Assembly (NCBI GenBank): GCA_044892505.1 | Contig: CM097883.1 | Location: 217,620,001 to 217,684,000 of the forward strand | DNA from: Schmidtea nova | Lineage: Eukaryota | DNA: 64,000 bases | Reading direction: 5' to 3' | Part shown: piece after piece, positions 25,431 through 49,874 of the stretch | How the letters are laid out: every line of letters begins with the position of its first letter | Position numbering within the stretch: position 1 is the first letter of the stretch | Notes under the pieces: generated by a model | Databases searched by the model: none | Told to the model about the DNA's origin: nothing | What the model saw: only the letters and a program-made list of their open reading frames with translations | Translations under genes and position numbers: made by a program

Positions 25431-26329
25431 CATCTTTTAACAAATCACTACGCCCCATATAATTTTTTATTTTATTGAAACAATATTAGTTTGTAACATA
25501 ACGTACAATGAATAAACTTGTACATGTATAAATGATTTTTTTTGAAATAACTAAAAAATTCATAAACACTTTGAAGACTAGTAGGCGCAGTATTTCAAGG
25601 AAATTTTATTTAAAATAAGTTTCTTTTAAAAAGATTTCTTAAAAAATGTTTTTTAATGGTTTTCTTTGACATTTAATAGAGACTAAAATTCTATTTTTAA
25701 GAGCCTTTTACAAAAGGCGCCGGAATCTTTGCATCCACTGTTTCTAGTTAAAGTCGGCCTGGCTATATGCCAGAAAATAAAAATGGCTTCACTCGAAACA
25801 TTTAATAGGTGTAGTATTTTCATTAATATCTGACTATTTTTTGTATTTTATGGAGCAATCGTAAATATTTTATATACTTTTTCAATTTTCAAATCTTTTT
25901 TCTATATATTAAATTTTAATATTTTAATAATTAGAATCCTTGGTTTAAAATAGGAAGATAATATTCTTTACGATATAATAATTTTTGATTAGAAATAGTT
26001 TTATATGTTCATTTATAATCAAATTATAGTCATTTTTAAATTTTGTTTCTATATCATTATCATTATCATTAACAAAAATTAAATTAATAAATAATAAAAA
26101 TTATTTAAATTAATAAAATAATTAAATTTAAATTCAATTAGCCACAAATGACTTCGATTAACCTTTATTTGATGACGTTAACATACTTTTAACAATATTT
26201 TGATAAACTTGAAGGATAATTTGAGTTCAAAGTGCGTTGGAATACTATTATTATCGTTTTAATGAAAATTCTGTGCATTTCAAACTCATGTTGGGCTGGT
26301 AGAAGTGAAATCAAATTTTTGTTTCAATG

Positions 26330-28056: not shown

Positions 28057-28899
28057 TTTCAAACCTTTTTTTAAAAATTTATTTCCTTTTCCTTTTTTAA
28101 CTTTTGATAACAATTACTTTACTTTGTTAAATATTTATTTATTTTTTTAATTTAAATTAAAAGTTTGAAATATCATAACATTGTTTAAATAATCTCTTTT
28201 AATTCTTCTCTTTTCAAAAATGATTGCAACTCAAACTCAAATGCCTAATGGTGAATGTAAATTTGGAGATGAACAATGTGTTCTCTCCTCTCGTGTGGAT
28301 GAGCTTGTTATTTTTGGAGAGTTTTTTTTCTTGATTCACTTTTATTTACTTTTTTTCTTTCCTTTCTTAATTATTTCTTATTTACTACTTCATTTTGTTT
28401 ATAAATTTCTATATTTGACCTGAAAACATCTCAATTAAAAACTCTTTTACCCCTTTTTTGACGTTTTGCTCTGGTGACTAAACACTGTTTAGGTCAATCA
28501 AAAGGCAATTTTAGTCTTTAAAAAAAACATCCAGATAATTATTATCCAGATAATTATTGTACACCTGATAAATTTTAATTAATTTTTGCAATTTTATTTA
28601 TTTTGATATTTCTTTGCTTTTACCCTTCTTTCTTGTTACTTTTGTGATTTTTATACTAACCCCAGCAGAAGGAATTGGGAAAATGTCAGAGCAAATCGAT
28701 CTTACGGAGGACATTGAAATTTATTTTGAAATTCCAAATTTGAACATAAAATGGGCAACGGAAAATTATTTAAAGCCAATTGAAGATAATGTTGAGGTAA
28801 TAGCTGGTAATAAAGGCAGAAGACAAAGGTATGACAACGATGGAAAAAGGACATTAGCTCAGGAAGTTCAGTGCCTCGGATCAAGGAACAATAGTCGCA

Positions 28900-30825
28900 T
28901 TACAGAAAGGATTACAGAGATTAGAAAAGATTATAGAAAGTTTGAGGTCACAGGGAACACGACCTAGAAACAGTGTGACTCGCACAAGAATGGTGGATCT
29001 TAAATGTTACAAATGTAATGAACCAGACCACATAGCCCAATTTTGTAAAAAACAAGAATGGATGAAACCAAAAAAAGAACGAATTTGTTATCAGTGCGGA
29101 AAGAAAGGTCACATTTCAGCTAATTGCCGAAGTAATATGAGCGGTGCAAAAAATGGAACGGAATGTTTCGAGTGTGGTGGAGCACACCAAGCTAGATTTT
29201 GCGATAAAAGAAACAAGTTTAGGTATTTACAAGAAGAATGCGAGGAGGATATAAGAACTGAAATCACAGATACAGTAGTTTCCGAAGAACAGGAAAATAA
29301 CTGTGTCGCAATGACAAAGGATAGCTGGGGCGAGCAAAGAACGGTAAAGATGATAAAAAGTCTTGCAACAAAACCAACATTGGAAGAGAAATATGTTAAC
29401 TTTGTCAATGGGTAAGGTAAAACACCAAAGACGCAATTGAGGAAATACGAACCAACGCTGATTTCTTTTAACAAACCTGAGAAGGCCCGATATAAACCAA
29501 TTACAGAATGTGTGATTATAAATCTACCGGTGAAAGTCGTGTTTGATTCAGGAGCAGATCTGAATGTTATAAGTCAAGAGTTTGCGGAAGATATTGTCAA
29601 AGATAACCCAGCAATAAAAGTTTACAATTCAACAACAAACGTAACATGTGCTAATGGAAGTACAGATTTTTCCCAATACCAGCTGCAGAGGATTAAGTTA
29701 AATATTTCAATCTGACCTATATTAACGAGTCATGTTTTTGATATTATGCCTAATATATTTCCACATATTTTTTTAGGACTTAAAAGCATGAAGATACACG
29801 CAAAATATATTGATGCAGCAAATGAAGGACTTTAATTGCAAAGGATTAAATTCCATCTTTATCTAAGACAATCCCTATTTCTTCTTTAAATGAATGACAA
29901 CCGTATGTGGGGGGTCGGAGTGCGGTTGTGAGGAGAGAGGAGGCTCAGCGAGATTATTATTATAGAGTTATTTTATCGAATAATATAGAAATGAGTAATG
30001 CTGGGATGTTGGTTAATGATCGTAGGGAGAAAATTGATGATTTTAATGAGATTTATATATTTGATGGAGAAAGATCGAGGGTGGCAGATCGTGAAATTGT
30101 GATAAGTGACTACGTAGTATAAGGCAAGAAATGGTATTTATTAGTAAAGAATGCATGTAAGAGGGAGGTTCGAAGACTCTGCATACAGAGACCGGCTTGG
30201 GATATTTAGAAAAAAGGAACGAGTTTTTTAATGAATCAAAGGGCACATTGAATAAACTCACGAAAGATGAAAAAATAAAGGACAAGAAAGCAATAGAGAC
30301 AATATGTTTTTTTAAATAGAGGTTAGCTATCTAAGACATATCATAAATAAGTAAGGTGTTAAAACAAATCCACAGTAAATCAAAAGTTTCAGTTCATGGG
30401 AAATTCCAGCACGTAAAAAGAGTTGCAGTCATTTTTGGGATTTTGCAATTACTACAGACTTTTTATTAAAATGTATGCAGAGACTTTAGAGAAATTGAGT
30501 GCGAAGCTAAAAAATGAAAGATGTTTCCAGTGGAATGAGGACAGAAAAGTAGCGTTCTATGAGCTAAAGCGGTTATTGTCAACCCTACCATTGTTGGAAT
30601 TACCATGCAAGAAAGGACAATAATTTTTTAGACAAAGATGCATCACATAATAGCATTGGGGCTATCTTGTCACAAATGCAAGAAGGCAAGTTAAGAGTAC
30701 TATGTTATGTGTCAAAACTATGAGTAAGTGTCAAAGACGGTATTTCATAACAAGGAAAGAACTACTAGCAATTTATACATAAGTGTTAAGATTCTAGCAT
30801 TATCTCCTCGGATCCAAATTTATAG
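28900..30825 (+). mobile_element. Degenerate Ty3/Gypsy gag-pol (zinc knuckles, protease, RT, RNase H)
   Basis: CYKCNEPDHIAQFC, CYQCGKKGHISANC, CFECGGAHQARFC; VVFDSGADLNVIS; LQSFLGFCNYYRLFI; DASHNSIGAILSQ; truncated at HYLLGSKFIV. Confidence 0.9.
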
Positions 30826-30862
30826 TGTTGGGTGGTATGGGTGTGTTATAAAAATTATTAAC
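30826..30862 (-). mobile_element. Left stub of family-B LTR split by the Polinton
   Basis: Reverse complement (gttaat aatttttataacacacccataccacccaaca) matches 10815-10845. Confidence 0.7.
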
Positions 30863-31360
30863 AGTAAGAGGGTGTGAGCCCCCCAGCACAGGATGAGTTA
30901 TCGCGCACCGCCGATTGAAACAAAATATTCAAACCCCCCGGGGGGAGTGGGGGGGTAATTTTTTTGTTTTAATTTTTGATTTTTGATTTTTCGTTTTTTT
31001 CACGTTTTTGCACAGTGCAAATCGATTTTTTCAAATTTTCTCTACGCAGTATGGTGGTGCACAATGTGCTGCACATTTCTATATCTAAAACTTTTTCATT
31101 GGATGCGCCAAGTAACCGATTATTGATTTTTTCAGTTTTTTTTACATTTTAGCACAGTGAGAATAAAAATTTTTAAGTTTTCTCAACGTTGTTGGGTAGA
31201 TCACAATGAGCTGCACATTTTTTGTTTTGGAAACTTTTTTATAGGATGTGCGGAAGGCACCTAAAAACACGTGTGAGCCCCCCAGCACAGGATGAGTTAT
31301 CGCGCACCGCCGATTAAAACAAAGAAATTTTAACCCCCCCGGTGGGGAGAGGGGGGTAAA
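30863..31360 (+). repeat. Polinton terminal/subterminal repeat: two tandem copies of TGTGAGCCCCCCAGCACAGGATGAGTTATCGCGCACCGCCG plus C/G-rich tract
   Basis: Copies at 30873 and 31272 (about 400 bp apart); CCCCCCGGGGGG palindrome and G-runs; mirrored at 48450-48945; independent copy at 49796-49874. Confidence 0.9.
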
Positions 31361-31439
31361 AATGTTTTTGTTTTAATCGTCGAATATTGATTTTGAAAAT
31401 TTTTTTTGTTTAAATGAGCACAGAAGGAGAAATAATAAA

Positions 31440-32600
31440 GTTAAGAGAAAACTTCCAAGACAAAAGTTGTAGATCATATCGAGGCGCACATTTTAGTTTA
31501 AAAGACCTTTTATTTTTCTTAATCCTATGTTCCAAACTCGTGTTCCAATGTCTCGTTTAAAGAAATATACGACTTCTAAAAAAGATGTGAGAAAACTTCC
31601 AAGACAAAAGTCGTAGACAATGACGAGACACATTTTATATTTGCAAAATACTTTCATTTTGGTCAACCCAATGTATCGAAATCTTGTTCAAAGTTTCGTT
31701 TAAAAATACATGTAAAACTCATATTGACTTTAAAGTGCAAATAAAGTGCAAACAAATAATTACGTATAACTTTTTATTAAAAGGTGCTACTATATATTTT
31801 CAAGTGCCAATATCTTTTAAAAAGTTCTGCACATTATTTTAAAGTGCAACTATTGATTTCTAAGTGCTAAAATGTGCAAGATTGTCATTTTTGTGCAGAA
31901 ATCAGAGTTTTTCAATGGGTTACTCAGTTTTTTAGGAGACTTTTGTTGCATCAACTTATGGGGGCAATGTGCCCGGTTATTCCCGTCACATTTTTTGTCT
32001 AAAAAATTTAATTTTTTCTAGATTTTTCAAGATTTTTCTTCAAAAAAAAATTACCATAAAATTTTTTCATGGAAATGAGTTTACGAGTCGATTATCGATC
32101 TCCATTAAACTCAAATTCCTAGTAAACTACTTGACCAATTTCAAGATGATGCATATCATTAGACTCTAAAACATGTGCCTCATCTTTTGATCAAAAAATA
32201 TTTTGTAAAAATATCAATTATAAATAGTTTGTTTTTTCCCAGTGACAGAAACATTATATCAAAATAATTTTTACATCGTTAGACTCATAATCAAATGAGC
32301 TTTGAGCTGATATAAAAACTTTGCAAAATTCTATTGATTTTTATTTTTTCACACACTACACTTTTAGTTTTTCATAGGTGCTCTAAACTATTTTCGTGAA
32401 TATTATACATCATTAGACTCGTAAATAAATTCTTTACAAGAATCTATATATATTTTTTGTGTAAATATTGATTTTTCAGTTTTGCACATTTTGCACCTTG
32501 ACTTTTTTACAAGTTTTATAAATAATTTTCAACATATTTTTACATCATTCAACTCGTAATCGTCTATTCTACAAAATCATGTCATTACTTTTATGAAACT
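31440..32600 (+). repeat. Degenerate subterminal direct repeats
   Basis: gagaaaacttccaagacaaaagt x2; aagtgc motif cluster 31730-31880; catcattagactc-type unit x4 at 32114-32560. Confidence 0.75.
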
Positions 32601-32719
32601 ATTTATTTTCAAAATTTTCAATTTTCATTTACTAATTTTAATTATTTTCAAAATATTTTTACATCAATGTATTCAACAATTAAATAATTTGTAAACATGT
32701 ATTGAAACAAACACAATAA

Positions 32720-33074
32720 TTAGTCGAAACACATGTGATTATAGAGTTCATTAACTAAAGTATTAATAGTCTGTTTTCGTTTGTATTCAATGCATTCTTG
32801 ACAATTGAAAGGACAAACAAGTGTCTTGAGTATTTTGGCTTGCTTTTTGTATCCATATAACATTAATTTATAATGATATATAATACGTTCGACATTGATT
32901 CCAGTGGCTTGATAGATTTTGGTACTAGCAAGTTCTGGAGCACAATTTAATATTTCATCCTTAATCTCAGGATAAATCTGAGCAATTTTATTAATAAGGA
33001 CTTCAATCTGAAATGCTAGACAAAATTAAAATAATGAAGTAAAATTTTTTACCAATATCTGAAACTTGAGACAT
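32720..33074 (-). CDS. Hypothetical 105-aa protein, two exons (37-nt intron 33016-33052); left-arm copy
   Basis: ATG TCT CAA GTT TCA GAT ATT G|gt..ag|CA TTT CAG... splices in frame to MSQVSDIAFQIEVLINKIAQIYPEIKDEILNCAPE...CPFNCQECIEYKRK...HMCFD*. Confidence 0.7.
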
Positions 33075-33112
33075 TGTAAAAAAAATGAAAAGCGTGAAAT
33101 ATTTCTCTGTAT

Positions 33113-33562
33113 TTATAGTTTTTGGGAACTAATCAAATTCTTTATATCTTGAACAATTTTATTTACCATCCAATCAAAGTTGAGAGTTTTTATACCAAGT
33201 ATAACTATTTTTCCACTGGAAAATAAATTTATACATAATGGTTTATAATTACAAAGTCTTAAAGCAGGAAATATTTCTGGTTCATATATGCAATTCGCTT
33301 TCTTTGATAGATAATGTAAATTAATTTTTTCTCCAATATCCACATTAACTGTACATGATTGAAGACGAACATCTTTAATATCATAGTGTATGCTTTCGAG
33401 GGGTTTCTTGCAACTCATTATCCTACATTTACCAGATTTAAAAAATATAATTGTATATTTTTCATTTTTATCTATAATCTGTTGGAGTTTCAATTTTGGA
33501 AATCTCATGTTTTGTACAACTTTCATTGGAACTTGTCCTCTATAATTAATATTAACCAACAT
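33113..33562 (-). CDS. Divergent TATA-binding protein (TBP)-like, 149 aa; left-arm copy
   Basis: Two TBP repeats: LVNINYR, MRFP, IIFFKSGKCRIMSCK; LQSCTVN, YEPEIFPALRL, NLFSSGKIVILGIK. Confidence 0.85.
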   Translation of the reverse strand: MLVNINYRGQVPMKVVQNMRFPKLKLQQIIDKNEKYTIIFFKSGKCRIMSCKKPLESIHYDIKDVRLQSCTVNVDIGEKINLHYLSKKANCIYEPEIFPALRLCNYKPLCINLFSSGKIVILGIKTLNFDWMVNKIVQDIKNLISSQKL

Positions 33563-33718
33563 TTATGAAACTTGTTATTATTTAATTGATATGTTTAAAC
33601 AAATATTTTATTAATTATGTTGTTGTTATGCTTTTGGTTTCTATATCATTTATTAAAAACTAAAGACAATAAATTAAAGACACATCTTTTAAAAATTATA
33701 ATTATTATAACAATACAA

Positions 33719-34237
33719 CTAATTATTAACTCTACCGCTTAAGATCTTGCAAACAGGTAAGATGGCAGAGCTTGGAGCTATCTTGTAACCTTGAATACGG
33801 ACGACCAAGTTCCATTTATAGTTTTCTTTGAAATGTATCTGAGTATTTCCTTCAAAAAGCTTTGTTGATGGACCACCGATAAATGCACCATCTTCACCTA
33901 ATAATAGTTGTTTGTTTATTCTACTAAATAATGTTCTAATTGCCTCTCGATCTTCTAGCTCAAAATCTTCTATCCAGTAATTGTAGCTAGTCTTCACTAA
34001 GGGAACCGGATTTACTAGAATAAAATCTATTGGATTTTTTAATAAGATCATCTTGAAATCGTGGTAAACATATTCGGGTTTGAAGATTGAAATTTCTTCT
34101 TCCTTCTTCAAGGTTTCTTCATTAAACTTCATCTTTTTCTTCATCGAATGTTCACTTGTTTCCTTCATCATCAGCTGAAATAATGAAAAAATATATTTGG
34201 CAAACACATACTTTCTCAAATACATACACATCTGCAT
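33719..34237 (-). CDS. Hypothetical protein (up to 172 aa); left-arm copy
   Basis: Open frame with globular beta-rich C-terminal half; candidate 37-nt GT-AG intron near the 5' end; no family recognised. Confidence 0.65.
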   Translation of the reverse strand: MQMCMYLRKYVFAKYIFSLFQLMMKETSEHSMKKKMKFNEETLKKEEEISIFKPEYVYHDFKMILLKNPIDFILVNPVPLVKTSYNYWIEDFELEDREAIRTLFSRINKQLLLGEDGAFIGGPSTKLFEGNTQIHFKENYKWNLVVRIQGYKIAPSSAILPVCKILSGRVNN

Positions 34238-34661
34238 TTTGATTTGTCTATTTTATTCTATCAACCATTCACATGCATGTTATGTGATCAGTTATTGATA
34301 TGTTATTGATCAGTTTGTTCCGCCTGACTTTATGTGATTTAATAACTTAGATGATGACTTTAAATTTTGAGTCAATTTCCTAAGAAACAATAATAAATCT
34401 ACATTAAAAAGAATAATAGAATTTAAATTAAAAAATTAAGATAAATAAGAAAATTTATGACAATAAAATCTTAATTTTATGATAATAAAGACTTTTATGT
34501 ATTTTTTAGGAAAATTGAACTTTTTTAGGAATTTTTGATTTGTTTAAAATTGTTAATTCTTTAATTTGAGATCCTTGTAAACTTTTTGAAATTTGATTAA
34601 AAATACAATGATGTTTAAATAATTACTGTCATTGAAAAGATAAGTTAACAATAAAATTGAA

Positions 34662-35675
34662 ATGAATCCAGATTTAATCTCTAAGTACTTTAAAAAGTTT
34701 GTCAGTTATATTCCAACGGTTTTTGAATCATATGATACATCAAGAGTTATCATTTTGCAATTTGCTCTATCTGGTCTCGATTTGTTAAATCGCATTGATG
34801 ATCTCTCGCAATCAGATAAAAATGAAATAGTTGACTGGATTTATGAGCTGCAAATATTAAATTATCAATCTGGCCGTTTAGAGGGATTTCGAGGTGGATT
34901 TTTCCCGAGTAATTGTCATCTCACAAACCAGATTTACATGTCTGGTCATGTAACGATGAATTATTCGTGTTTAGTTTGTTTGATGATTTTGGGTGATAAT
35001 CTTAGTCGAGTCGATAAAACTGGCATTTTAAAATGTTTTAAAAATTTGCAAAATTCTGAAGATGGCTGTTTTTGTGCGGCTCTTGACTGCCCAGAAGCAG
35101 ACGTGAGATTTATATTTTCTGCTTTAGCTTCATGTGCAATTATAAACGATTTCAGCATAGTAGATGTTAATGCTGTTGTGTCGTTTATTTTGAAATGTCA
35201 AGATTATGATGGTGGGTTTGGTCAGAGACCTCGTGAAGAAAGTCACAGTGGCTCCACCTATTGTGCAATAGCAAGTTTAAAGATTCTGTCAAAATTAGAT
35301 GTTTTGTTCCCTGAAAATTCTAGTAAAAGGAATTTAATGCTTCGGTGGTTAATAAATCGTCAGTACGAAGGACTTCATGGAAGACCGCATAAGGACGACG
35401 ATAGTTGTTATACATTTTGGATAGGAGCCTCATTGAAAATGCTTGGCTATGGACATTTAATAAATTTCCCTTCTTTGTTCGATTTCATTGAGTCTACTTA
35501 TGAAAATCTGGCCGGTGGATTTTGTAAATTGAAGAACTTGGGACATTCATTTGGTGATATCTATGAGATCGTTGTGAAAAATGCCGAAACTCTAGACAAT
35601 GCTATTGATTATTCCGGATTTGAAACGTTGAAAAGGTCTTATCCTTTAAGAATTGCTGACAAGGTCGTAGAATGA
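34662..35675 (+). CDS. PGGT1B: Geranylgeranyltransferase type I beta subunit-like, C-terminally replaced by RNR alpha-derived sequence; left-arm copy
   Basis: YDTSRVIILQFALSGLDLL, GHVTMNYSCL..L.ILGDNLSRVD, EADVRFIFSA, CQDYDGGFGQ...ESHSGSTYCAIASL, GRPHKDDDSCYTFWIGASLKMLG, GGFCK; afterwards DIYEIVVKNAETLDNAIDYSGFETLKRSYPLRIADKVVE (RRM1-like). Confidence 0.9.
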   Translation: MNPDLISKYFKKFVSYIPTVFESYDTSRVIILQFALSGLDLLNRIDDLSQSDKNEIVDWIYELQILNYQSGRLEGFRGGFFPSNCHLTNQIYMSGHVTMNYSCLVCLMILGDNLSRVDKTGILKCFKNLQNSEDGCFCAALDCPEADVRFIFSALASCAIINDFSIVDVNAVVSFILKCQDYDGGFGQRPREESHSGSTYCAIASLKILSKLDVLFPENSSKRNLMLRWLINRQYEGLHGRPHKDDDSCYTFWIGASLKMLGYGHLINFPSLFDFIESTYENLAGGFCKLKNLGHSFGDIYEIVVKNAETLDNAIDYSGFETLKRSYPLRIADKVVE

Positions 35676-35891
35676 CCACAACACAGGTTCGTGAGAGCAG
35701 CTGTTGGAATATACAAGGATGATATTGAAAGTGCAATTGAGACTTTTAACTTAATGTCAGAAAAATGGTTCATACACGCTTCACCCATAGTGTTTAATGC
35801 AGAATTGAGATATGGACAACCTTCCAGTTGTTTTCTACTGATAATGAAAGATGACTGCCTTTCTAAATCGAAGCAACAACATGCATGTTAG
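35532..35891 (+). pseudogene. RRM1: Ribonucleotide reductase large subunit fragment; left-arm copy
   Basis: Same frame across one TGA (35673-35675): [46 protein letters not shown]...[12 protein letters not shown]; truncated both sides. Confidence 0.9.
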
Positions 35892-35955
35892 TATATTACA
35901 ACATCCAATCAGTATTATACATAAACATGTGTGTATTTCATAATATTTTGCATTA

Positions 35956-36408
35956 ATGTCTTTTATGGAAGATTATATAGCAACAATTATTCATGAATTG
36001 CTTTTTGGAAGCGAAGATAAAGTAGTTCAATGTTTGAATTGTATGTTACTTGAAGCTGAGTATCATTGTACTATTGATTTCTCTCCAATATTAAAACCAA
36101 GAACAGATATTGAAAAGGAGAAAGCATTCAAAAATGTCTTTGACTCATTATTTGAAGATGGTATCCGTTGGTCTAAAGTTATTACAATTTTTTTGTACAT
36201 TCGAAAAATTCTTATTTTATGTCCAACTGAACATCAGAAATATTTGAAATGGTCAGTACAAGAAATTCTCAAAATTTATCCATGGATCAAAGAAAACGGA
36301 GACTGGGAATATGTTATTAAATTACAATTAAAATATGGTTTTAATTTGATTATTAAATGTTTAAGTATTTGTATTATATATTTAATAAAATTTTATCAAC
36401 TTTATTAA
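35956..36408 (+). CDS. Bcl-2 family protein, 150 aa; left-arm copy
   Basis: BH1-like FKNVFDSLFEDGIRWSKVITIFLY, BH2-like PWIKENGDWEYV, hydrophobic C-terminal tail. Confidence 0.82.
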   Translation: MSFMEDYIATIIHELLFGSEDKVVQCLNCMLLEAEYHCTIDFSPILKPRTDIEKEKAFKNVFDSLFEDGIRWSKVITIFLYIRKILILCPTEHQKYLKWSVQEILKIYPWIKENGDWEYVIKLQLKYGFNLIIKCLSICIIYLIKFYQLY

Positions 36409-36411
36409 TAA

Positions 36412-36885
36412 TTTTTAAACACAAAACATTTATTTAACAATTTACCAAACTTTATTCTTGTAATATTTCAATCGGAAGCTCAATATAATAGTTCATATGC
36501 AGAAACGAGTTCAAAATTTAACCATTTTAGTATAACTTCAATAACTTTGTCGAAACACTCTGATTATCGTGAAACATATACGCAAGATTTTGACAAAGAT
36601 AATTATGCTGTAACTTATATGCAATCTATTGTACGAAATATGGGTTATTTAGACAAGAATTTAAATTGTGGAATAGATCTTGTAGACTTTAAAAGTAAAT
36701 ACCCCTTCTTTACATTTGTGTTGGCTCCCAACTGTGATTGGAATCAATCACAGTTACCTCAAAATGGAAATTTAAGACTTGATATTAAATTCAACAAGGC
36801 TCTTACATCTCCTGCATATGTAATAATTTATGGTGTTTTTGAGAGTGAAATCCAGATCTCCTCAAATCGAACTATTTTAGTGTAA
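36412..36885 (+). pseudogene. 3' part of Polinton major capsid protein (double jelly-roll), 5'-truncated at the duplication junction
   Basis: LFNNLPNFILVIFQSEAQYNSSY...KFNHFSI...YPFFTFVLAP...QNGNLRLDIKFNKALTSPAYVIIYGVFESEIQISSNRTILV; no start codon. Confidence 0.8.
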
Positions 36886-36916
36886 ACAAAGTTGTTGATT
36901 AATATTATTTCGAAAT

Positions 36917-37302
36917 ATGGAGTAAGTTCGTTTTGTTACTATTAATTTTACTAATGTAGTTCTATTCAGCTTAATAGAATTGCAACAAATTTATTTGAAT
37001 ATAATTTTTTGGGAGTTTATCCATTAGATAAAATTCCTTTTCTAAACGATAACAAAGCCATCATTGTCAATACACAATCATCAAGTCTTGAAGGAGAACA
37101 TTGGCTAGCCATCTATATGACCAGAGGAAAGATTCATGTGTTTGACCCTATGGGTTATTATTATCCATCATTCTTGGTATCGAAGCTCTCAAAATTATCA
37201 AAACCAATTGTTTACAACAGAAATAGATATCAAGATCTATTTACAATTATTTGCGGACAATATTGTATTGTTTGGTTATATTATATGTTTAATAAATGTT
37301 AA
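36917..37302 (+). CDS. Adenain-like cysteine protease (Polinton PRO), join(36917..36921,36960..37302), 115 aa
   Basis: ATG GA|gtaagt...taatgtag|T TCT gives MDSIQLNRIATNLFEYNFLGVYPLDKIP...GEHWLA...FDPMG...QDLFTIICGQYC (His, Asp, Gln, Cys catalytic set). Confidence 0.9.
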
Positions 37303-37425
37303 TTATTTGGTGTATGACTTTTATTTTCAAAAATAACTAAAATAACTCGTTTGTTTTTATAACTTTTAATAAAATAACATTTAAACAACTTTAGCAATAA
37401 CAACAACAACAAGAATGTAAAATTG

Positions 37426-40400
37426 TTATTCCGATAAATATTGGTCTGAATCGCTTGATACAAAACTTGGGGAATGCTCCGTTGATGATTGTTGTTGTTG
37501 TTGGTCAGGAAAGTCACTTTTAGTATTAATATTATTATTTATAACACTTTCCTCAGAAATTACTACAGAATAATGCCCATAAGCTAGACTCTTGTTCCTC
37601 CCCACCCAAACCCTTTTATCATCGTTGTTAGTTAATGCGACTTTATTTGTTTTAAATGTTAACAGCTGATGATTTTTAGTACCGATTCTAATTTGTGGGA
37701 CTTTTGGAATTATCATTCCATTATAACAGTCCAAATATGACTGATGATTTATTATAGTCTGTCCCAACCGAATACCTTTTGCTTTTAACGTTTGTTTCTT
37801 TGGACCTCCCAAGAGACTATATAACTTTGGACGAAGGAAAACCCATTCTTTATATTTGATTCCTTTACTTTCGTCCTTAAATTTTCCCACAACTGATGCC
37901 AAATCTCTATTGAATAATGGATGGGAGGAATCATAGTTTGAAGTGTCCAAGAGTTTGTCCTTTATCATTTCTCTTAATAAAACTTCCAGGTTTAAATTCT
38001 TTACCTCCAAAAAGAATGAGTCAGTGTCTCCAGCTACAATATTAATTTCACAATTGAATTGTTCCCTATACTTTCGCAAATCATTATATTGCAGTTGGTA
38101 CATTCTTAGTTTGGATAAATCCAAGACTGTTTGACCAATATATGTTGGTCTATCCAAACATACAATTTCCTGATTCAACAGAGCAGCTATTAGGTTGTCA
38201 GCAATTTTGAAGCTTTTCTTGAACCCAGGTATAGATGCATATGTCACCATTTTCTTCTGGGTATTACATAGACGTAAATTTATTCGTTTCTTCAAATTTT
38301 CCACCGTTTTGCCATAGAAGCTATTGTTGATTAGCTTATAATAATCTTTATCTAATTCTGTCAAGGAAGCAGCTCGTAATTTTGTATTGTTGTCGATATA
38401 ATTTTTAAATATTTGTCCTTGTTTGAATTTAATTGCTCTATGAACCTTTGTTACTTGAACACCCAACATCAGGAAAAACTTCAACAATCTCCAATGAATC
38501 ACATAATTCTTCTTTGAATAATGTGTTAATAAAAGTTTAGGAACCTTTGATTCAGAGGGGCACATTTTCTCAGCTGATGCAGGCAAATCATCTATTAAAT
38601 CGTGAATCTCATCAGGAATTTCCAAATCCACCTCCATTGTAAATCCGTAATTGAGTTTTTCCAGCTCCAATGTTTGACAATCTTCCAAGACTTTATCTAG
38701 ATTGTCATGAACCCATTTGAATTCTCCGCATGGCAGACTTTGACAGAGTGCCCAACCATATAGATTATTTATGTCTATATAAAGCAAATCAGTATTTTCA
38801 TCAGTTTTCACATGATGTTTGTTGACAAATGTAAGTCCCCCTCTAATTCCACCTTCATAATAATTGTACATTTCATAATCTGTCAACAATTCAATAGGAC
38901 TATCCAGTGTTAAAAGTCCAGAAGCCCAAGACATTCCCGGTATTCCAAAGAAATTCAAAGGTTCCAAACCATTATGTGCTAATGATTTGGCTCGAAATTG
39001 TTCAAAATAGTCTGCCAATAGATATACGTCTAACTTCATGTATATCATCATGTAATCCAACAATGTCTCGCAGCTATTCTCTCTCCATATATTCTTGGCT
39101 TTTTCATATTCGTCTTCAGTCACTCCAGTCCATATTGGAGGCAATTCAAAAGTTTCTTGAAGTATTTCCAAACTCTTTGCGAAGTCAAATGGAAATATAC
39201 CCTTTGAGTCTACAATTGATGCTTGGAATACCGAATTTGTTATGGGTAAGCTTATCAAAGTCTTCACTGCTCCAGCTAAAGATTCATTTATAAACTGGTA
39301 TGAATCTATGAATTTTATTGTCATTTTCTTGTAATGAGCGATAAGTGTGAGAAATTTCTCACATGTTGTAGGAATACAACTTATGCTCCAATTACGAAAT
39401 TTATTTATTCCGTATTTTAAAATATGATGCATATCATAACCCTTGAGGTTATGAAATACAACTGGTAGGGTTCTTCTAATTCTTCGTGAGAGATTGCATC
39501 TATTGCAAGCTGCTCCTAAGTACTTTCCACTAAAATGGTTGTGATCTCGAACCAAATTATTAGGGGTTTTGTGACATATGTAACAGGAAGTTGCTCTATT
39601 AAATGAAATCTGTTGATCACGATTAATCACCATTAATGTATTACTATGTTCCACGTAATATTGTAATACTTTAGTCTGTGAAATTTCCTCCACTTTCTTA
39701 AGAAAATCAAAGACACAGTCATGTCCAATAAATTGATGATATTCTTTACTTCCTGAATAGTTATTTACCAATAAAAGTCCAGCTGAAATTGGTAAATGTT
39801 TTTGGTAGTGTTGCTCATCCTCTGGTAAGACTGATTCAAAATCCGCATAGATGACATATGGCGGTAATCAATTTTGACCAATCTATATTTGTTTGTAGGA
39901 GTTATGTATAATGTGGTTCCTATTTGATTTTTTTACATAGATCTACATGTCTGTCAAATGCTAATGGTCTTCGAAAACCGTTAAGACAATTAGGGCACCA
40001 TTTGCATTGAATTCTCGTCGGACAATCTTCGTTTTCATGAAAATTCATCAGCCTATTTAGATTTGGAACAGCTGTGTAGTGATAATTTCCATTTTCTTCC
40101 AACAAAAGCAAATATATTGGGTTAATATCTTTTACTTTTGTTTTATGAATAATATCTAGATGTGGATGTTTCATAAGCACATCATCTTCCACCGAGAAAT
40201 TATCTGCCTCGTACGATAATACGTTAATAGCTATCCCGGGATTTTGGGCTTCAAATTTCCGAATATCTTTCAGTTTTGTAGGCACTTTTTCCCTATCGAA
40301 CCTTAGTTCTGATAAGTATTGTGTATATTGTGACGGTCTATTTCTGTTGCTGTTTATTACATCATATTTTAATAATGATAAAACACTATAAATAAAACAT

Positions 40401-41569
40401 AGGTTATCATTATTCCTTACATTGATCAGTTTGCCTTTGAGATTTATTGGAGTATTAATAAATCTATGTCCTGGCAATCTACTTATCTCTGCATACTTTG
40501 TTACTTTAAAGTTGATTTCCAATATACGGTTCAAATGCCAACTACTTCCCATCGTAGTTCTTATTGTTATTTTTTCATTTAGGGATTGTATACCCTCCTC
40601 CAGAAAGTTTGGTGACATCTCCACAGCACGATTTGAGAGTCTTGCAGTCCTGATCTCTCCATCTTTAACGAATTCTGCGTTTATACCAAATTGTACCTTA
40701 CCTTTTTTCAATTCGGATAGACAAACTTTTAGTTTTGTTTTTAAAGAAACAGGAATAATTATTTCTTGTACATTATAACCTGAAATGTCCAAGGAAATAA
40801 TTTGATGTGATCTATATAAGTCACATTCAATTTCGGGTTCCTTATCTATTCCTGTTCCAGTTTGAATAAATGTTTCATCCATTAAAGAGTAGCTATCTGC
40901 ATACTCTGTAGATTCACTTTCGGTATAAAAATCTGTTATCTCATCCACTAATTCAAAATTTAGCCAATCTTCTAGAATTGGTTCCTCTTGATTTCCAACA
41001 TTTTCTTCTTCTTCTTCTTCTTCTTGTCCATCTTGTCCATCTTCTGCTTCGGAATCTGTGATTAAAATACAATCTTCTCCTCGGTTTCCTGAATTGTCCA
41101 TTTCTTGAATCACCTCTTCAGAATCTTCTTCTTCTTCGGAATCGATGATTAAAATATAATCTTGTTGTTGTTGTTGGTGAATTTCTTCTCCTTGGTGTCC
41201 CATATCCTCCATTTCTTGAATCGCCTCTTCAGAATGTTGTTTGGAATTGGCAACATCATTTGTTTCTTGAATCGATACTTCTTCTTGTTGTTGTTGTTGT
41301 CATTGTTGTTGATTTGTTTCTTCACAAACGTTGATCTGATCCAAATCAACGTTGACATTATTTTCTAAACGCCGACATATTTTATTATTATTATATATAA
41401 TAATTGGAGCTTTTCTTTTAAAAAGCTTCTTTTTACTTTCATTAAATAGGGTTAAGTGTCGCATATGATTTTTATAAAAGGTAAGGTATGGGTCGGAACT
41501 TAGAGTCTGGCAAAATGGACATATATAGTATATTTCCTGGAAATATGTTATTTTATAATAAAGTTCCAT
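37426..41569 (-). pseudogene. polB: Protein-primed family B DNA polymerase (pPolB) with endonuclease VII-like insert, disrupted
   Basis: YADFES, RDHNHFSGKYLGAACNRCNL, VFHNLKGYD, FIDSY, KGIFP, GIRGG, YIDINNLYGWAL, KLINNSFYGK, GDTDS, GKFKDE, LRPKLYS; ORFs 41300-41569 and 39920-41212 are in frame across one TGA; frameshifts between 39920 and 39867. Confidence 0.95.
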
Positions 41570-43341: not shown

Positions 43342-43400
43342 AAAACTGCATGTTTTTGTCAAGATTATTTGTTAAATAAATGTTTTGTGTTTAAAAATTA

Positions 43401-43853
43401 TTAATAAAGTTGATAAAATTTTATTAAATATATAATACAAATACTTAAACATTTAATAATCAAATTAAAACCATATTTTAATTGTAATTTAATAACATAT
43501 TCCCAGTCTCCGTTTTCTTTGATCCATGGATAAATTTTGAGAATTTCTTGTACTGACCATTTCAAATATTTCTGATGTTCAGTTGGACATAAAATAAGAA
43601 TTTTTCGAATGTACAAAAAAATTGTAATAACTTTAGACCAACGGATACCATCTTCAAATAATGAGTCAAAGACATTTTTGAATGCTTTCTCCTTTTCAAT
43701 ATCTGTTCTTGGTTTTAATATTGGAGAGAAATCAATAGTACAATGATACTCAGCTTCAAGTAACATACAATTCAAACATTGAACTACTTTATCTTCGCTT
43801 CCAAAAAGCAATTCATGAATAATTGTTGCTATATAATCTTCCATAAAAGACAT
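43401..43853 (-). CDS. Bcl-2 family protein; right-arm copy
   Basis: Identical translation to 35956-36408. Confidence 0.82.
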   Translation of the reverse strand: MSFMEDYIATIIHELLFGSEDKVVQCLNCMLLEAEYHCTIDFSPILKPRTDIEKEKAFKNVFDSLFEDGIRWSKVITIFLYIRKILILCPTEHQKYLKWSVQEILKIYPWIKENGDWEYVIKLQLKYGFNLIIKCLSICIIYLIKFYQLY

Positions 43854-43917
43854 TAATGCAAAATATTATGAAATACACACATGTTTATGTATAATACTGA
43901 TTGGATGTTGTAATATA

Positions 43918-44277
43918 CTAACATGCATGTTGTTGCTTCGATTTAGAAAGGCAGTCATCTTTCATTATCAGTAGAAAACAACTGGAAGGTTGTCCATATC
44001 TCAATTCTGCATTAAACACTATGGGTGAAGCGTGTATGAACCATTTTTCTGACATTAAGTTAAAAGTCTCAATTGCACTTTCAATATCATCCTTGTATAT
44101 TCCAACAGCTGCTCTCACGAACCTGTGTTGTGGTCATTCTACGACCTTGTCAGCAATTCTTAAAGGATAAGACCTTTTCAACGTTTCAAATCCGGAATAA
44201 TCAATAGCATTGTCTAGAGTTTCGGCATTTTTCACAACGATCTCATAGATATCACCAAATGAATGTCCCAAGTTCTT
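43918..44277 (-). pseudogene. RRM1: RNR large subunit fragment; right-arm copy
   Basis: Mirror of 35532-35891. Confidence 0.9.
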
Positions 44278-45147
44278 CAATTTACAAAATCCACCGGCCA
44301 GATTTTCATAAGTAGACTCAATGAAATCGAACAAAGAAGGGAAATTTAATAAATGTCCATAGCCAAGCATTTTCAATGAGGCTCCTATCCAAAATGTATA
44401 ACAACTATCGTCGTCCTTATGCGGTCTTCCATGAAGTCCTTCGTACTGACGATTTATTAACCACCGAAGCATTAAATTCCTTTTACTAGAATTTTCAGGG
44501 AACAAAACATCTAATTTTGACAGAATCTTTAAACTTGCTATTGCACAATAGGTGGAGCCACTGTGACTTTCTTCACGAGGTCTCTGACCAAACCCACCAT
44601 CATAATCTTGACATTTCAAAATAAACGACACAACAGCATTAACATCTACTATGCTGAAATCGTTTATAATTGCACATGAAGCTAAAGCAGAAAATATAAA
44701 TCTCACGTCTGCTTCTGGGCAGTCAAGAGCCGCACAAAAACAGCCATCTTCAGAATTTTGCAAATTTTTAAAACATTTTAAAATGCCAGTTTTATCGACT
44801 CGACTAAGATTATCACCCAAAATCATCAAACAAACTAAACACGAATAATTCATCGTTACATGACCAGACATGTAAATCTGGTTTGTGAGATGACAATTAC
44901 TCGGGAAAAATCCACCTCGAAATCCCTCTAAACGGCCAGATTGATAATTTAATATTTGCAGCTCATAAATCCAGTCAACTATTTCATTTTTATCTGATTG
45001 CGAGAGATCATCAATGCGATTTAACAAATCGAGACCAGATAGAGCAAATTGCAAAATGATAACTCTTGATGTATCATATGATTCAAAAACCGTTGGAATA
45101 TAACTGACAAACTTTTTAAAGTACTTAGAGATTAAATCTGGATTCAT
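44134..45147 (-). CDS. PGGT1B: GGTase-I beta/RNR chimera; right-arm copy
   Basis: Mirror of 34662-35675 with one I/L difference. Confidence 0.9.
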   Translation of the reverse strand: MNPDLISKYFKKFVSYIPTVFESYDTSRVIILQFALSGLDLLNRIDDLSQSDKNEIVDWIYELQILNYQSGRLEGFRGGFFPSNCHLTNQIYMSGHVTMNYSCLVCLMILGDNLSRVDKTGILKCFKNLQNSEDGCFCAALDCPEADVRFIFSALASCAIINDFSIVDVNAVVSFILKCQDYDGGFGQRPREESHSGSTYCAIASLKILSKLDVLFPENSSKRNLMLRWLINRQYEGLHGRPHKDDDSCYTFWIGASLKMLGYGHLLNFPSLFDFIESTYENLAGGFCKLKNLGHSFGDIYEIVVKNAETLDNAIDYSGFETLKRSYPLRIADKVVE

Positions 45148-45571
45148 TTCAATTTTATTGTTAACTTATCTTTTCAATGACAGTAATTATTTAAACATCA
45201 TTGTATTTTTAATCAAATTTCAAAAAGTTTACAAGGATCTCAAATTAAAGAATTAACAATTTTAAACAAATCAAAAATTCCTAAAAAAGTTCAATTTTCC
45301 TAAAAAATACATAAAAGTCTTTATTATCATAAAATTAAGATTTTATTGTCATAAATTTTCTTATTTATCTTAATTTTTTAATTTAAATTCTATTATTCTT
45401 TTTAATGTAGATTTATTATTGTTTCTTAGGAAATTGACTCAAAATTTAAAGTCATCATCTAAGTTATTAAATCACATAAAGTCAGGCGGAACAAACTGAT
45501 CAATAACATATCAATAACTGATCACATAACATGCATGTGAATGGTTGATAGAATAAAATAGACAAATCAAA

Positions 45572-46090
45572 ATGCAGATGTGTATGTATTTGAGAAAGTA
45601 TGTGTTTGCCAAATATATTTTTTCATTATTTCAGCTGATGATGAAGGAAACAAGTGAACATTCGATGAAGAAAAAGATGAAGTTTAATGAAGAAACCTTG
45701 AAGAAGGAAGAAGAAATTTCAATCTTCAAACCCGAATATGTTTACCACGATTTCAAGATGATCTTATTAAAAAATCCAATAGATTTTATTCTAGTAAATC
45801 CGGTTCCCTTAGTGAAGACTAGCTACAATTACTGGATAGAAGATTTTGAGCTAGAAGATCGAGAGGCAATTAGAACATTATTTAGTAGAATAAACAAACA
45901 ACTATTATTAGGTGAAGATGGTGCATTTATCGGTGGTCCATCAACAAAGCTTTTTGAAGGAAATACTCAGATACATTTCAAAGAAAACTATAAATGGAAC
46001 TTGGTCGTCCGTATTCAAGGTTACAAGATAGCTCCAAGCTCTGCCATCTTACCTGTTTGCAAGATCTTAAGCGGTAGAGTTAATAATTAG
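45572..46090 (+). CDS. Hypothetical protein; right-arm copy
   Basis: Mirror of 33719-34237; candidate intron 45598-45634. Confidence 0.65.
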   Translation: MQMCMYLRKYVFAKYIFSLFQLMMKETSEHSMKKKMKFNEETLKKEEEISIFKPEYVYHDFKMILLKNPIDFILVNPVPLVKTSYNYWIEDFELEDREAIRTLFSRINKQLLLGEDGAFIGGPSTKLFEGNTQIHFKENYKWNLVVRIQGYKIAPSSAILPVCKILSGRVNN

Positions 46091-46246
46091 TTGTATTGTT
46101 ATAATAATTATAATTTTTAAAAGATGTGTCTTTAATTTATTGTCTTTAGTTTTTAATAAATGATATAGAAACCAAAAGCATAACAACAACATAATTAATA
46201 AAATATTTGTTTAAACATATCAATTAAATAATAACAAGTTTCATAA

Positions 46247-46696
46247 ATGTTGGTTAATATTAATTATAGAGGACAAGTTCCAATGAAAGTTGTACAAAAC
46301 ATGAGATTTCCAAAATTGAAACTCCAACAGATTATAGATAAAAATGAAAAATATACAATTATATTTTTTAAATCTGGTAAATGTAGGATAATGAGTTGCA
46401 AGAAACCCCTCGAAAGCATACACTATGATATTAAAGATGTTCGTCTTCAATCATGTACAGTTAATGTGGATATTGGAGAAAAAATTAATTTACATTATCT
46501 ATCAAAGAAAGCGAATTGCATATATGAACCAGAAATATTTCCTGCTTTAAGACTTTGTAATTATAAACCATTATGTATAAATTTATTTTCCAGTGGAAAA
46601 ATAGTTATACTTGGTATAAAAACTCTCAACTTTGATTGGATGGTAAATAAAATTGTTCAAGATATAAAGAATTTGATTAGTTCCCAAAAACTATAA
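46247..46696 (+). CDS. Divergent TBP-like protein; right-arm copy
   Basis: Mirror of 33113-33562. Confidence 0.85.
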   Translation: MLVNINYRGQVPMKVVQNMRFPKLKLQQIIDKNEKYTIIFFKSGKCRIMSCKKPLESIHYDIKDVRLQSCTVNVDIGEKINLHYLSKKANCIYEPEIFPALRLCNYKPLCINLFSSGKIVILGIKTLNFDWMVNKIVQDIKNLISSQKL

Positions 46697-46734
46697 ATAC
46701 AGAGAAATATTTCACGCTTTTCATTTTTTTTACA

Positions 46735-47089
46735 ATGTCTCAAGTTTCAGATATTGGTAAAAAATTTTACTTCATTATTTTAATTTTGTCTAGCATTTCA
46801 GATTGAAGTCCTTATTAATAAAATTGCTCAGATTTATCCTGAGATTAAGGATGAAATATTAAATTGTGCTCCAGAACTTGCTAGTACCAAAATCTATCAA
46901 GCCACTGGAATCAATGTCGAACGTATTATATATCATTATAAATTAATGTTATATGGATACAAAAAGCAAGCCAAAATACTCAAGACACTTGTTTGTCCTT
47001 TCAATTGTCAAGAATGCATTGAATACAAACGAAAACAGACTATTAATACTTTAGTTAATGAACTCTATAATCACATGTGTTTCGACTAA
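46735..47089 (+). CDS. Hypothetical 105-aa spliced protein; right-arm copy, join(46735..46756,46794..47089)
   Basis: 37-nt GT-AG intron; 318 nt coding, in frame. Confidence 0.7.
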
Positions 47090-49795
47090 TTATTGTGTTT
47101 GTTTCAATACATGTTTACAAATTATTTAATTGTTGAATACATTGATGTAAAAATATTTTGAAAATAATTAAAATTAGTAAATGAAAATTGAAAATTTTGA
47201 AAATAAATAGTTTCATAAAAGTAATGACATGATTTTGTAGAATAGACGATTACGAGTTGAATGATGTAAAAATATGTTGAAAATTATTTATAAAACTTGT
47301 AAAAAAGTCAAGGTGCAAAATGTGCAAAACTGAAAAATCAATATTTACACAAAAAATATATATAGATTCTTGTAAAGAATTTATTTACGAGTCTAATGAT
47401 GTATAATATTCACGAAAATAGTTTAGAGCACCTATGAAAAACTAAAAGTGTAGTGTGTGAAAAAATAAAAATCAATAGAATTTTGCAAAGTTTTTATATC
47501 AGCTCAAAGCTCATTTGATTATGAGTCTAACGATGTAAAAATTATTTTGATATAATGTTTCTGTCACTGGGAAAAAACAAACTATTTATAATTGATATTT
47601 TTACAAAATATTTTTTGATCAAAAGATGAGGCACATGTTTTAGAGTCTAATGATATGCATCATCTTGAAATTGGTCAAGTAGTTTACTAGGAATTTGAGT
47701 TTAATGGAGATCGATAATCGACTCGTAAACTCATTTCCATGAAAAAATTTTATGGTAATTTTTTTTTGAAGAAAAATCTTGAAAAATCTAGAAAAAATTA
47801 AATTTTTTAGACAAAAAATGTGACGGGAATAACCGGGCACATTGCCCCCATAAGTTGATGCAACAAAAGTCTCCTAAAAAACTGAGTAACCCATTGAAAA
47901 ACTCTGATTTCTGCACAAAAATGACAATCTTGCACATTTTAGCACTTAGAAATCAATAGTTGCACTTTAAAATAATGTGCAGAACTTTTTAAAACATATT
48001 GGCACTTGAAAATATATAGTAGCACCTTTTAATAAAAAGTTATACGTAATTATTTGTTTGCACTTTATTTGCACTTTAAAGTCAATATGAGTTTTACATG
48101 TATTTTTAAACGAAACTTTGAACAAGATTTCGATACATTGGGTTGACCAAAATGAAAGTATTTTGCAAATATAAAATGTGTCTCGTCATTGTCTACGACT
48201 TTTGTCTTGGAAGTTTTCTCACATCTTTTTTAGAAGTCGTATATTTCTTTAAACGAGACATTGGAACACGAGTTTGGAACATAGGATTAAGAAAAATAAA
48301 AGGTCTTTTAAACTAAAATGTGCGCCTCGATATGATCTACAACTTTTGTCTTGGAAGTTTTCTCTTAACTTTATTATTTCTCCTTCTGTGCTCATTTAAA
48401 CAAAAAAAATTTTCAAAATCAATATTCGACGATTAAAACAAAAACATTTTTACCCCCCTCTCCCCACCGGGGGGGTTAAAATTTCTTTGTTTTAATCGGC
48501 GGTGCGCGATAACTCATCCTGTGCTGGGGGGCTCACACGTGTTTTTAGGTGCCTTCCGCACATCCTATAAAAAAGTTTCCAAAACAAAAAATGTGCAGCT
48601 CATTGTGATCTACCCAACAACGTTGAGAAAACTTAAAAATTTTTATTCTCACTGTGCTAAAATGTAAAAAAAACTGAAAAAATCAATAATCGGTTACTTG
48701 GCGCATCCAATGAAAAAGTTTTAGATATAGAAATGTGCAGCACATTGTGCACCACCATACTGCGTAGAGAAAATTTGAAAAAATCGATTTGCACTGTGCA
48801 AAAACGTGAAAAAAACGAAAAATCAAAAATCAAAAATTAAAACAAAAAAATTACCCCCCACTCCCCCCGGGGGGTTTGAATATTTTGTTTCAATCGGCGG
48901 TGCGCGATAACTCATCCTGTGCTGGGGGGCTCACACCCTCTTACTGTTAATAATTTTTATAACACACCCATACCACCCAACACTATAAATTTGGATCCGA
49001 GGAGATAATGCTAGAATCTTAACACTTATGTATAAATTGCTAGTAGTTCTTTCCTTGTTATGAAATACCGTCTTTGACACTTACTCATAGTTTTGACACA
49101 TAACATAGTACTCTTAACTTGCCTTCTTGCATTTGTGACAAGATAGCCCCAATGCTATTATGTGATGCATCTTTGTCTAAAAAATTATTGTCCTTTCTTG
49201 CATGGTAATTCCAACAATGGTAGGGTTGACAATAACCGCTTTAGCTCATAGAACGCTACTTTTCTGTCCTCATTCCACTGGAAACATCTTTCATTTTTTA
49301 GCTTCGCACTCAATTTCTCTAAAGTCTCTGCATACATTTTAATAAAAAGTCTGTAGTAATTGCAAAATCCCAAAAATGACTGCAACTCTTTTTACGTGCT
49401 GGAATTTCCCATGAACTGAAACTTTTGATTTACTGTGGATTTATTTTAACACCTTACTTATTTATGATATGTCTTAGATAGCTAACCTCTATTTAAAAAA
49501 ACATATTGTCTCTATTGCTTTCTTGTCCTTTATTTTTTCATCTTTCGTGAGTTTATTCAATGTGCCCTTTGATTCATTAAAAAACTCGTTCCTTTTTTCT
49601 AAATATCCCAAGCCGGTCTCTGTATGCAGAGTCTTCGAACCTCCCTCTTACATGCATTCTTTACTAATAAATACCATTTCTTGCCTTATACTACGTAGTC
49701 ACTTATCACAATTTCACGATCTGCCACCCTCGATCTTTCTCCATCAAATATATAAATCTCATTAAAATCATCAATTTTCTCCCTACGATCATTAA

Positions 49796-49874
49796 CCGGG
49801 GGGTTTGAATATTTTGTTTTAATCGGCGGTACGCGATAACTCATCCTGTGCTGGGGGGCTCACATCCCCCTACT
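49796..49874 (-). repeat. True right terminal inverted repeat of the Polinton (last 79 bp)
   Basis: Differs from left TIR at several positions (e.g. ggcggtacgcg vs ggcggtgcgcg), ends in TACT followed by TSD. Confidence 0.85.

Follow-up and report, generated by a model that had tools for sequence, protein, structure and literature searches.

The 64,000 nucleotides of Schmidtea nova DNA analysed here (the window) carry, within a Polinton-like element, an intact gene for a 149-residue TATA-binding protein (TBP) which the sequence comparisons place in an old, monophyletic family and which does not appear to be a recent copy of a host TBP. Transcription at TATA boxes is normally initiated by TBP. 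From what this family has kept and what it has replaced, we propose with moderate confidence that the protein, here called mini-TBP, would act as an element-encoded promoter factor of altered specificity, directed to a sequence other than TATA, using host TFIIB and RNA polymerase II (Pol II) and escaping the regulators to which TBP is normally subject. The features on which the argument draws are collected in Table 1.

Table 1. Features of the mini-TBP locus and of the element that carries it (positions in the window)
Feature	Position	Strand	Basis or remark
mini-TBP ORF, 149 aa	33113..33562	-	Pfam, AlphaFold2 model, fold comparison, family alignment
Second mini-TBP ORF, nucleotide-identical to the first	46247..46696	+	Sequence comparison
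TATAAATA overlapping the mini-TBP stop codon	33110..33117	-	Mirror copy 46692-46699 (+)
Left arm of 6430-bp inverted duplication, 4 differences	30011..36440		Includes ~810 bp of flanking gypsy DNA
Right arm of inverted duplication	43369..49797		Counterpart of 30011-36440
Putative element end, G/C-rich repeats and hairpin	30824..31411		Interrupts gypsy RNase H frame; precise start uncertain
ORF172, 172 aa, upstream neighbour of mini-TBP, intact	33719..34237	-	Copy 45572-46090 (+)
Intronless truncated geranylgeranyltransferase-I beta ORF running into N-terminal fragment of ribonucleotide reductase (RNR) large subunit	34662..35891	+	PF00432 E=7e-79; PF00317 E=3e-11
Bcl-2 family ORF, 150 aa, intact	35956..36408	+	PF00452 E=1.4e-7; copy 43401-43853 (-)
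Capsid-like fragment, cut at duplication boundary	36441..36885	+	Frame only
Adenain-like cysteine protease frame	36955..37302	+	PF00770 23.8 bits, cut-off 21.3
Protein-primed-type PolB with EndoVII/HNH insert	37426..41569	-	Pieces 41300-41569, 39920-41299, 37426-39867

The identity of the ORF as a TBP is secure, because its Pfam match, its PDB matches and the superposition of its model on solved structures all lead to TBP, with the next fold scoring only 6.8. The match to the Pfam TBP family (PF00352) scored 56.6 bits, where the cut-off is 22.9 (E=2.3e-15), but covers the second repeat only; a sequence search of the PDB returned TBPs or TBP fusions in 35 of 35 matches; and the AlphaFold2 model, made for the query alone from an alignment of 11 sequences, has a pLDDT of 91.9 and forms a two-lobed saddle that spans the whole chain. 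This model superposes on solved TBPs with Z up to 12.8 (rmsd 2.3-2.8 Å, 142-146 residues aligned; Foldseek E=5e-8), after which the next-best folds are rolling-circle Rep proteins at Z 6.6-6.8. The original prediction of a minimal, divergent TBP is upheld by these results, and the failure of a profile search to find TBP, which it had offered as a possible refutation, did not occur, PF00352 being matched above its cut-off. Reading of the ORF likewise confirmed that it runs intact from ATG to stop over 149 codons without an N-terminal tail (33113-33562, minus strand). There are two copies of the gene because both sit inside the 6430-bp inverted duplication.

The carrier had been called a Polinton, and what remains of it agrees with that: we file it as a defective Polinton-like element, in which a broken protein-primed polymerase (pPolB) is recognised by its motifs and an adenain frame by PF00770. 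Motifs ExoI, ExoII, PolA, PolB and PolC are all present in the polymerase, for which 1634 homologues were counted among 8000 candidates scored, the best of them 64% identical; these homologues are 50-64% identical and many carry PF03175, a family whose Pfam model missed the element's own PolB, and the N-terminal PolB pieces matched no Pfam family. The adenain frame has no in-frame ATG before its catalytic His motif. The fragment cut at the duplication boundary, whose sequence may resemble the C-terminal part of a major capsid protein of Polintons, gave no match in Pfam, PHROGs or NCBIfam searches. Neither an RVE integrase nor a packaging ATPase was found among the scanned ORFs of this truncated element, no Walker A motif is present in it, and no TFIIB or RNA polymerase gene was seen in what remains; endonuclease VII was the only PHROGs match, and Rfam gave 0 matches in 29000-51000. 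HNH inserts have been described in Polinton pPolB2 (PMC10748475), and adintoviruses are defined in the text of 10.1101/2024.03.25.586562 by an OTU-like domain at the PolB N-terminus, a recognisable hexon and an rve integrase.

The element shows one genuine junction only, the other end being a mirror copy that includes flanking DNA; because this mirror end carries ~810 bp of gypsy flank, the 6.4-kb repeat is not a terminal repeat, and it is either a fold-back duplication or an assembly/amplification chimera. At 49796-49888 the right duplication boundary is adjoined by a third fragment, which shares ~90% identity with the end repeat of the element and is apparently the end of a related element. 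Three ~200-bp repeat units with inverted arms at 42095-42570, which also match 13228-13413 and 3972-4138, are probably a host MITE-like insertion. Decayed remnants of LTR retrotransposons (zinc knuckle, protease, RT, RNase H) lie around the element at 24827-25478, 28683-30823 and 59419-62155, and a single-exon ORF of 1160 aa at 16199-19681, unusually long for a frame without introns and carrying DUF4550 (Pfam E=7e-22), is probably a host gene.

The neighbours of mini-TBP are varied. ORF172, which may resemble a viral single-strand-binding protein, matched no family in Pfam, PHROGs or NCBIfam; its best atlas score was 0.83, a lead only, and its single-sequence model has a pLDDT of 30.6. The prenyltransferase-beta ORF is 77% identical to P0313 over 300 aa, its best named relative being that of the flatworm Macrostomum lignano (46%), and the RNR large-subunit fragment contains an internal stop; the two pieces are captured cellular fragments that have been joined in the element. 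The Bcl-2 family ORF ends in a hydrophobic C-terminal tail and is likely anti-apoptotic cargo, and Bcl-2 homologues have been reported in adintoviruses (PMC8502044).

A single-sequence search with mini-TBP found 10 relatives of 145-170 aa at 43-57% identity, and a profile search run on representatives at 50% identity yielded 53 proteins with E no higher than 1e-30, with the best 150 matches listed. The alignment comprises 161 rows (the query, P0001-P0014 and P0164-P0312, three multi-repeat proteins being left out). From it we set aside 17 reference TBPs (6 canonical eukaryotic-type proteins along with 11 others), which were selected with a two-stirrup pattern, two being added by hand, and which bear type labels that were deduced rather than given. 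Another 44 rows, mostly fragments, were dropped from the remaining 144 for want of an anchor column, and the 100 that were counted, query included, are identical to the query at a median of 35% (range 23-58%). In a tree of 79 rows, 62 of them sampled from the 100 family rows, the family groups as one clade (support 100/100) whose stem measures 1.12 changes per column; within it, the query lies in a 38-row subclade (98/94) where it adjoins P0001. Some relatives (P0177, P0188, P0214, P0261 and P0266) have long low-complexity or basic C-terminal tails or N-lobe loop insertions; the query is without these.

The original prediction had named as a second possible refutation that the gene might be a recent, decayed retrocopy of the host TBP. 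Mini-TBP is indeed intronless and adjoins intronless captured host fragments, but it is only 23-29% identical to the six canonical eukaryotic-type TBPs and is nested among relatives 44-59% identical to it. Forcing it to group with those six cost 141 lnL (p-AU 1e-43) in a test that compared the canonical-type TBPs, with animal TBP and TRF2 outside the tree, and we reject such an origin as next to impossible.

Alternatively, the family might be native to some other kind of DNA virus or element, from which this Polinton-like element merely acquired the gene. The link between the family and Polintons is drawn from this one locus, the same arm carries clearly captured cellular fragments, and mirusvirus-like elements are described as carrying TBPs too (PMC10675990). 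Those fragments are truncated, however, whereas the mini-TBP ORF is whole; a TBP-like gene already bears a label on a published map of MELD viruses whose PolB is adintovirus-like (PMC8502044); and, as no more than a hint, the relatives of the TBP and those of the pPolB share their ENA/JGI origin and occur on short contigs. We consider it quite improbable that the gene is a stranger to this kind of element. In wider searches, 31 pattern matches in GTDB contigs yielded 0 confirmed, phages gave no tblastn match, the fetched TBP-family proteins matched nothing in the window outside the TBP ORFs, and a TBP domain was found in 0 of 120 pPolB homologues.

To compare individual residues, yeast numbering was set through P0302, a canonical TBP whose residues 117-291 match 1rm1_A 64-238 at equal length, and was cross-checked against the range over which the mini-TBP model aligns with 1ytb (1-148/66-240). 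On this scale F41, F98 and F114 of mini-TBP are F116, F190 and F207, and the predicted correspondence of IIFFKSGK, YEPEIFPAL and NLFSSGK with the motifs around these residues is reproduced by MAFFT. Three of the four intercalating phenylalanines are thus kept, and the four-PHENYLALANINE claim fails at the remaining one: F21 of MRFP is not aligned to F99, which in MAFFT falls in a three-residue gap after Q28. Profile-profile alignments of the mini-TBP N-half with the family's own C-half or with reference lobes placed F21 on an intercalating Phe in 0 of 6 cases; according to the register, the first such Phe meets either a gap or the region of residues 25-26. Phe is found in the F99 column of 0 of the 100 family rows as compared to 15 of the 17 reference TBPs, and a Phe anywhere in query columns 25-28 occurs in 6/100 rows. 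F21 itself, which is Phe in 59/100 rows, could still matter structurally.

The remainder of the DNA-contact face has also been altered. At the 16 contact positions that PMC12529657 gives in its own Table 1, mini-TBP is identical at 6 (N69, F116, F190, P191, F207 and V213), shows a sole conservative change (L114I), and is changed or deleted at 9; the hydrophobic concave face is not kept, and of the central Asn pair N69 is retained and N159 is lost, being Ser69 in mini-TBP, as had been predicted for the second-repeat Asn. Across the 100 family rows F116 (100), F190 (99), F207 (100) and N69 (95) are kept, and V122R (99), T124M (100), N159S/T (100), V161T/S (99) and L205N (99) are near-fixed, followed by V71N (77), V203C (76) and I194R (73); these substitutions occur in 0-2 of the 17 reference TBPs at each position. 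The five near-fixed changes hold in all 20 of the 20 rows less than 30% identical to the query, whereas V71N, I194R and V203C are seen in only 8, 7 and 9 of these 20; since the profile that selected the rows had been built from close relatives, residues conserved among those relatives are favoured, which brings in some circularity. V71, V122, T124, N159, V161 and L205 are all listed as DNA contacts of TBP (PMC12529657), and I194, V203 and L205 are the three sites that define the altered-specificity mutant TBPm3 (PMC1636458).

Because the contact face is replaced across the family, TATA is unsupported as the likely target. An ordinary TATA-binding substitute for TBP, working with all four phenylalanines, would accord with the six identical contact residues, with a nearby TATAAATA whose 8-mer is somewhat over-represented, and with an F21 that could reach the DNA in three dimensions; it is nevertheless highly improbable, given that F99 is absent from 100/100 rows and that the other contact positions have largely changed. 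The TATAAATA itself is present as predicted and, counted from the sequence, ends 36 nt before the next ATG, but the "next gene" behind it is only a 23-codon ORF. In 32720-33074 this ORF is succeeded by a 101-codon frame, which starts with a codon other than ATG and carries a CPxxCxxC motif; its sole match, to NCBIfam NF033830 at a sub-threshold 15.9 bits against a cut-off of 75, is probably due to chance. When the non-coding DNA of the element is taken in 33-nt windows, 1.7% of these contain an exact TATAAATA (4.6% contain TATAWAWR), and the 8-mer was observed 9 times in 30850-43368 versus 3.4 +/- 1.9 in simulation, an enrichment inseparable from AT-rich repeats. The site is weak, was picked after the fact, and is uninformative on the target of mini-TBP. 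Among ten upstream regions, in some of which the start was displaced by one base, no shared 6- or 7-mer emerged that was not AT-rich.

On its other side mini-TBP has a complete C-terminal lobe and an N-terminal lobe that is 25 residues short. The model has strands at 2-10, 28-32, 37-41 and 45-51, one short helix at 13-17, coil up to residue 62 and the complete second lobe thereafter, so that the S2 strand and H2 helix are absent from the N-lobe, H1 is short, and residues 52-62 form no helix. Alignment gives 7 residues for the H2 region as compared to 20 in the reference TBPs, and the spacing is likewise reduced from N69 to F116 (37 versus 47 residues) and from F116 to Q158 (27 versus 42). Model and spacing together indicate that the N-lobe helix H2 and stirrup have been deleted. 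Longer relatives outside the query's subclade keep, judged by eye, helix-length segments, which suggests that H2 was lost stepwise, and a crude split of the family into short and long members by spacing requires 7-8 changes on the tree. The basic cluster of H2 has been described as the common docking site of TFIIA, TAF1, Mot1/BTAF1, Brf1 and Brf2, and two glutamates of the C-lobe stirrup as contacts of TFIIB, with Brf1 and Brf2 also touching a C-lobe glutamate (PMC7221094). Checked against these contacts, mini-TBP is missing the H2 basic cluster used by TFIIA, by model and by spacing, and has both TFIIB glutamates, as E94 and E96; these correspond to E186 and E188 in yeast, kept in 90/100 and 99/100 family rows.

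The loss of H2, which removes most of the eukaryote-specific transcription contacts, could be taken to mean that mini-TBP is no transcription factor but an architectural protein that bends DNA at the element's terminal repeats or origin, in the service of replication, packaging or integration. The gene does lie ~1.7 kb from the repeat-rich element end, and Rep proteins are the folds that come next after TBP; their Z, however, is far below that of TBP and within the range of common arrangements, and the near-invariance of both TFIIB glutamates argues against a role apart from transcription. We think such a function distinctly unlikely.

Alternatively, kept TFIIB glutamates and a lost regulatory lobe might describe a decoy, in which mini-TBP titrates host TFIIB (or the cyclin folds of Brf) or occupies host promoters and so dampens host transcription, leaving the element's promoters unserved. 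Repression through the sequestration of a general factor has a precedent in TRF2/TLF (PMC3142196). The likely anti-apoptotic Bcl-2 ORF in the same arm would suit this interpretation as well. A decoy, on the other hand, needs no near-fixed new residues on the DNA face, and these are seen even in the rows less than 30% identical to the query. The contact between TBP and TFIIB is, moreover, normally formed on DNA. An action of this sort is unlikely, in our judgement, though it deserves to be kept in mind.

We therefore return to mini-TBP as a promoter factor of altered specificity. Folded as the modelled two-lobed saddle, it would wedge the minor groove with three phenylalanines, namely the full C-lobe pair plus F41, and its polar, charged concave face would probably read a motif other than TATA, as the family-wide substitutions suggest. 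Conservation of the intact YEPE stirrup points to recruitment of host TFIIB and hence, probably, of Pol II; with the N-lobe H2 and stirrup deleted, docking is not expected of TFIIA, TAF1, Mot1/BTAF1 or the Brf anchor. Taken together, this would amount to a one-gene switch of promoter specificity for the element's own genes, probably late or structural ones, which would act when the element replicates in the nucleus. The recruitment of host machinery that had been envisaged is in keeping with the kept glutamates, and redirection of Pol III is less likely than that of Pol II, the basic patch on H2 that serves Brf1 and Brf2 being deleted; of the suggested competition with host TBP, only a contest for TFIIB would survive. 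Binding may be weakened by the loss of F99, since in KSHV ORF24 all four phenylalanines are required (PMC12529657). The YEPE residues could be kept for structure instead, and it is possible that the element formerly encoded a partner, such as a TFIIB-like protein, that has been lost. At columns 26, 50 and 111, all three near-invariant in the family, the Schmidtea copy has a different residue, and its element is broken; for these reasons it may be decaying; in a defective element it may no longer perform the switch.

To our knowledge, how Polintons and related mid-sized DNA viruses, which lack an RNA polymerase, time and select their own genes' expression is unexplained, and the mini-TBP gene represents a testable candidate for both. 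The family is also a natural experiment on whether a TBP can start transcription without helix H2, TFIIA and the F99 wedge, and it provides some 100 divergent natural sequences with the same changes from which to learn about the residues that give TBP its base specificity. If a private motif is read through host TFIIB, the result would be a compact, orthogonal pair of promoter and factor; if our proposal is true, mini-TBP would be the smallest known working TBP and a third viral solution beside the six-protein complex of herpesviruses and the TBP/TFIIB pair of giant viruses. More tentatively, this leads us to speculate that invertebrate Polinton-like viruses might carry a widespread family of natural altered-specificity TBPs, the extreme being a 145-150-aa form without H2, as a single-gene promoter code for a virus of ~20 kb that would use a private motif with host TFIIB and Pol II and be blind to TFIIA, TFIID and Mot1. 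A published account of the mini-TBP family, of its loss of H2 or of its rewired face was not found in a literature search of the running text of mostly open-access papers, and the words TBP and TATA have 0 occurrences in PMC10748475, PMC11161782 and 10.1101/2024.03.25.586562. The novelty is the anatomy and breadth of the family and not the possession of a TBP by a virus, since giant viruses, poxviruses and herpesviruses are all known to have TBPs (PMC7221094) and a MELD-virus map bearing a TBP label is already in print (PMC8502044).

Compared with the canonical TBPs of eukaryotes and archaea, mini-TBP shares the two-lobed saddle, the complete C-lobe, F116, F190, P191, F207, N69 and the TFIIB glutamates. 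Unlike them, it has a first lobe shorter by 25 residues, without S2 and H2 and with a short H1, has neither an N-terminal tail nor F99, carries Ser at N159, and presents polar or bulky residues at V71, V122, T124, V161, I194, V203 and L205. The engineered yeast mutant TBPm3 gained binding to TGTA through changes at I194, V203 and L205 (PMC1636458), where it has hydrophobic or small residues and the mini-TBP family has Arg, Cys and Asn. TRF2/TBPL1 has been described as having lost the intercalating phenylalanines and TATA binding while still binding TFIIB (PMC3142196, PMC10005294); it is a host paralogue that binds TFIIA, and we liken it to mini-TBP by description only.

Among viral proteins, the vTBPs of beta- and gammaherpesviruses (KSHV ORF24, EBV BcRF1) likewise unite a TBP fold and a DNA face of polar character. 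In ORF24, positions V122, T124, V161 and L205 are occupied by polar residues; the protein drives a TATT late promoter and needs its asparagines for late-gene activation (PMC12529657; for the asparagines also 10.64898/2026.06.29.734287). It is, however, a protein of 752 aa with four phenylalanines as compared to the 149 aa and three phenylalanines of mini-TBP, and it is described as being without the TFIIB glutamates that mini-TBP keeps, binding Pol II directly and needing five partner proteins (PMC12529657). Since the residues on the DNA face differ (Arg/Met in mini-TBP, Asn/Asn in ORF24), we infer convergence, and the resemblance would be in working only, on the DNA side. Giant-virus (NCLDV) TBPs, which match the mini-TBP fold in BFVD at E 5e-7 to 1e-3 with 7-19% identity, are reported to have no eukaryotic N-lobe signature, which has been proposed to evade Mot1; their TFIIB glutamates vary (~40% conserved at C.L3.2) and a viral TFIIB is usual (PMC7221094), whereas the glutamates are near-invariant in the mini-TBP family. 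The gene on the MELD-virus map of Starrett et al. (2021) is described by its legend label, "similar to TATA binding proteins" (PMC8502044, Fig. 5), alone. In its combination of features mini-TBP differs from both of the viral kinds described, the giant-virus TBPs and ORF24.
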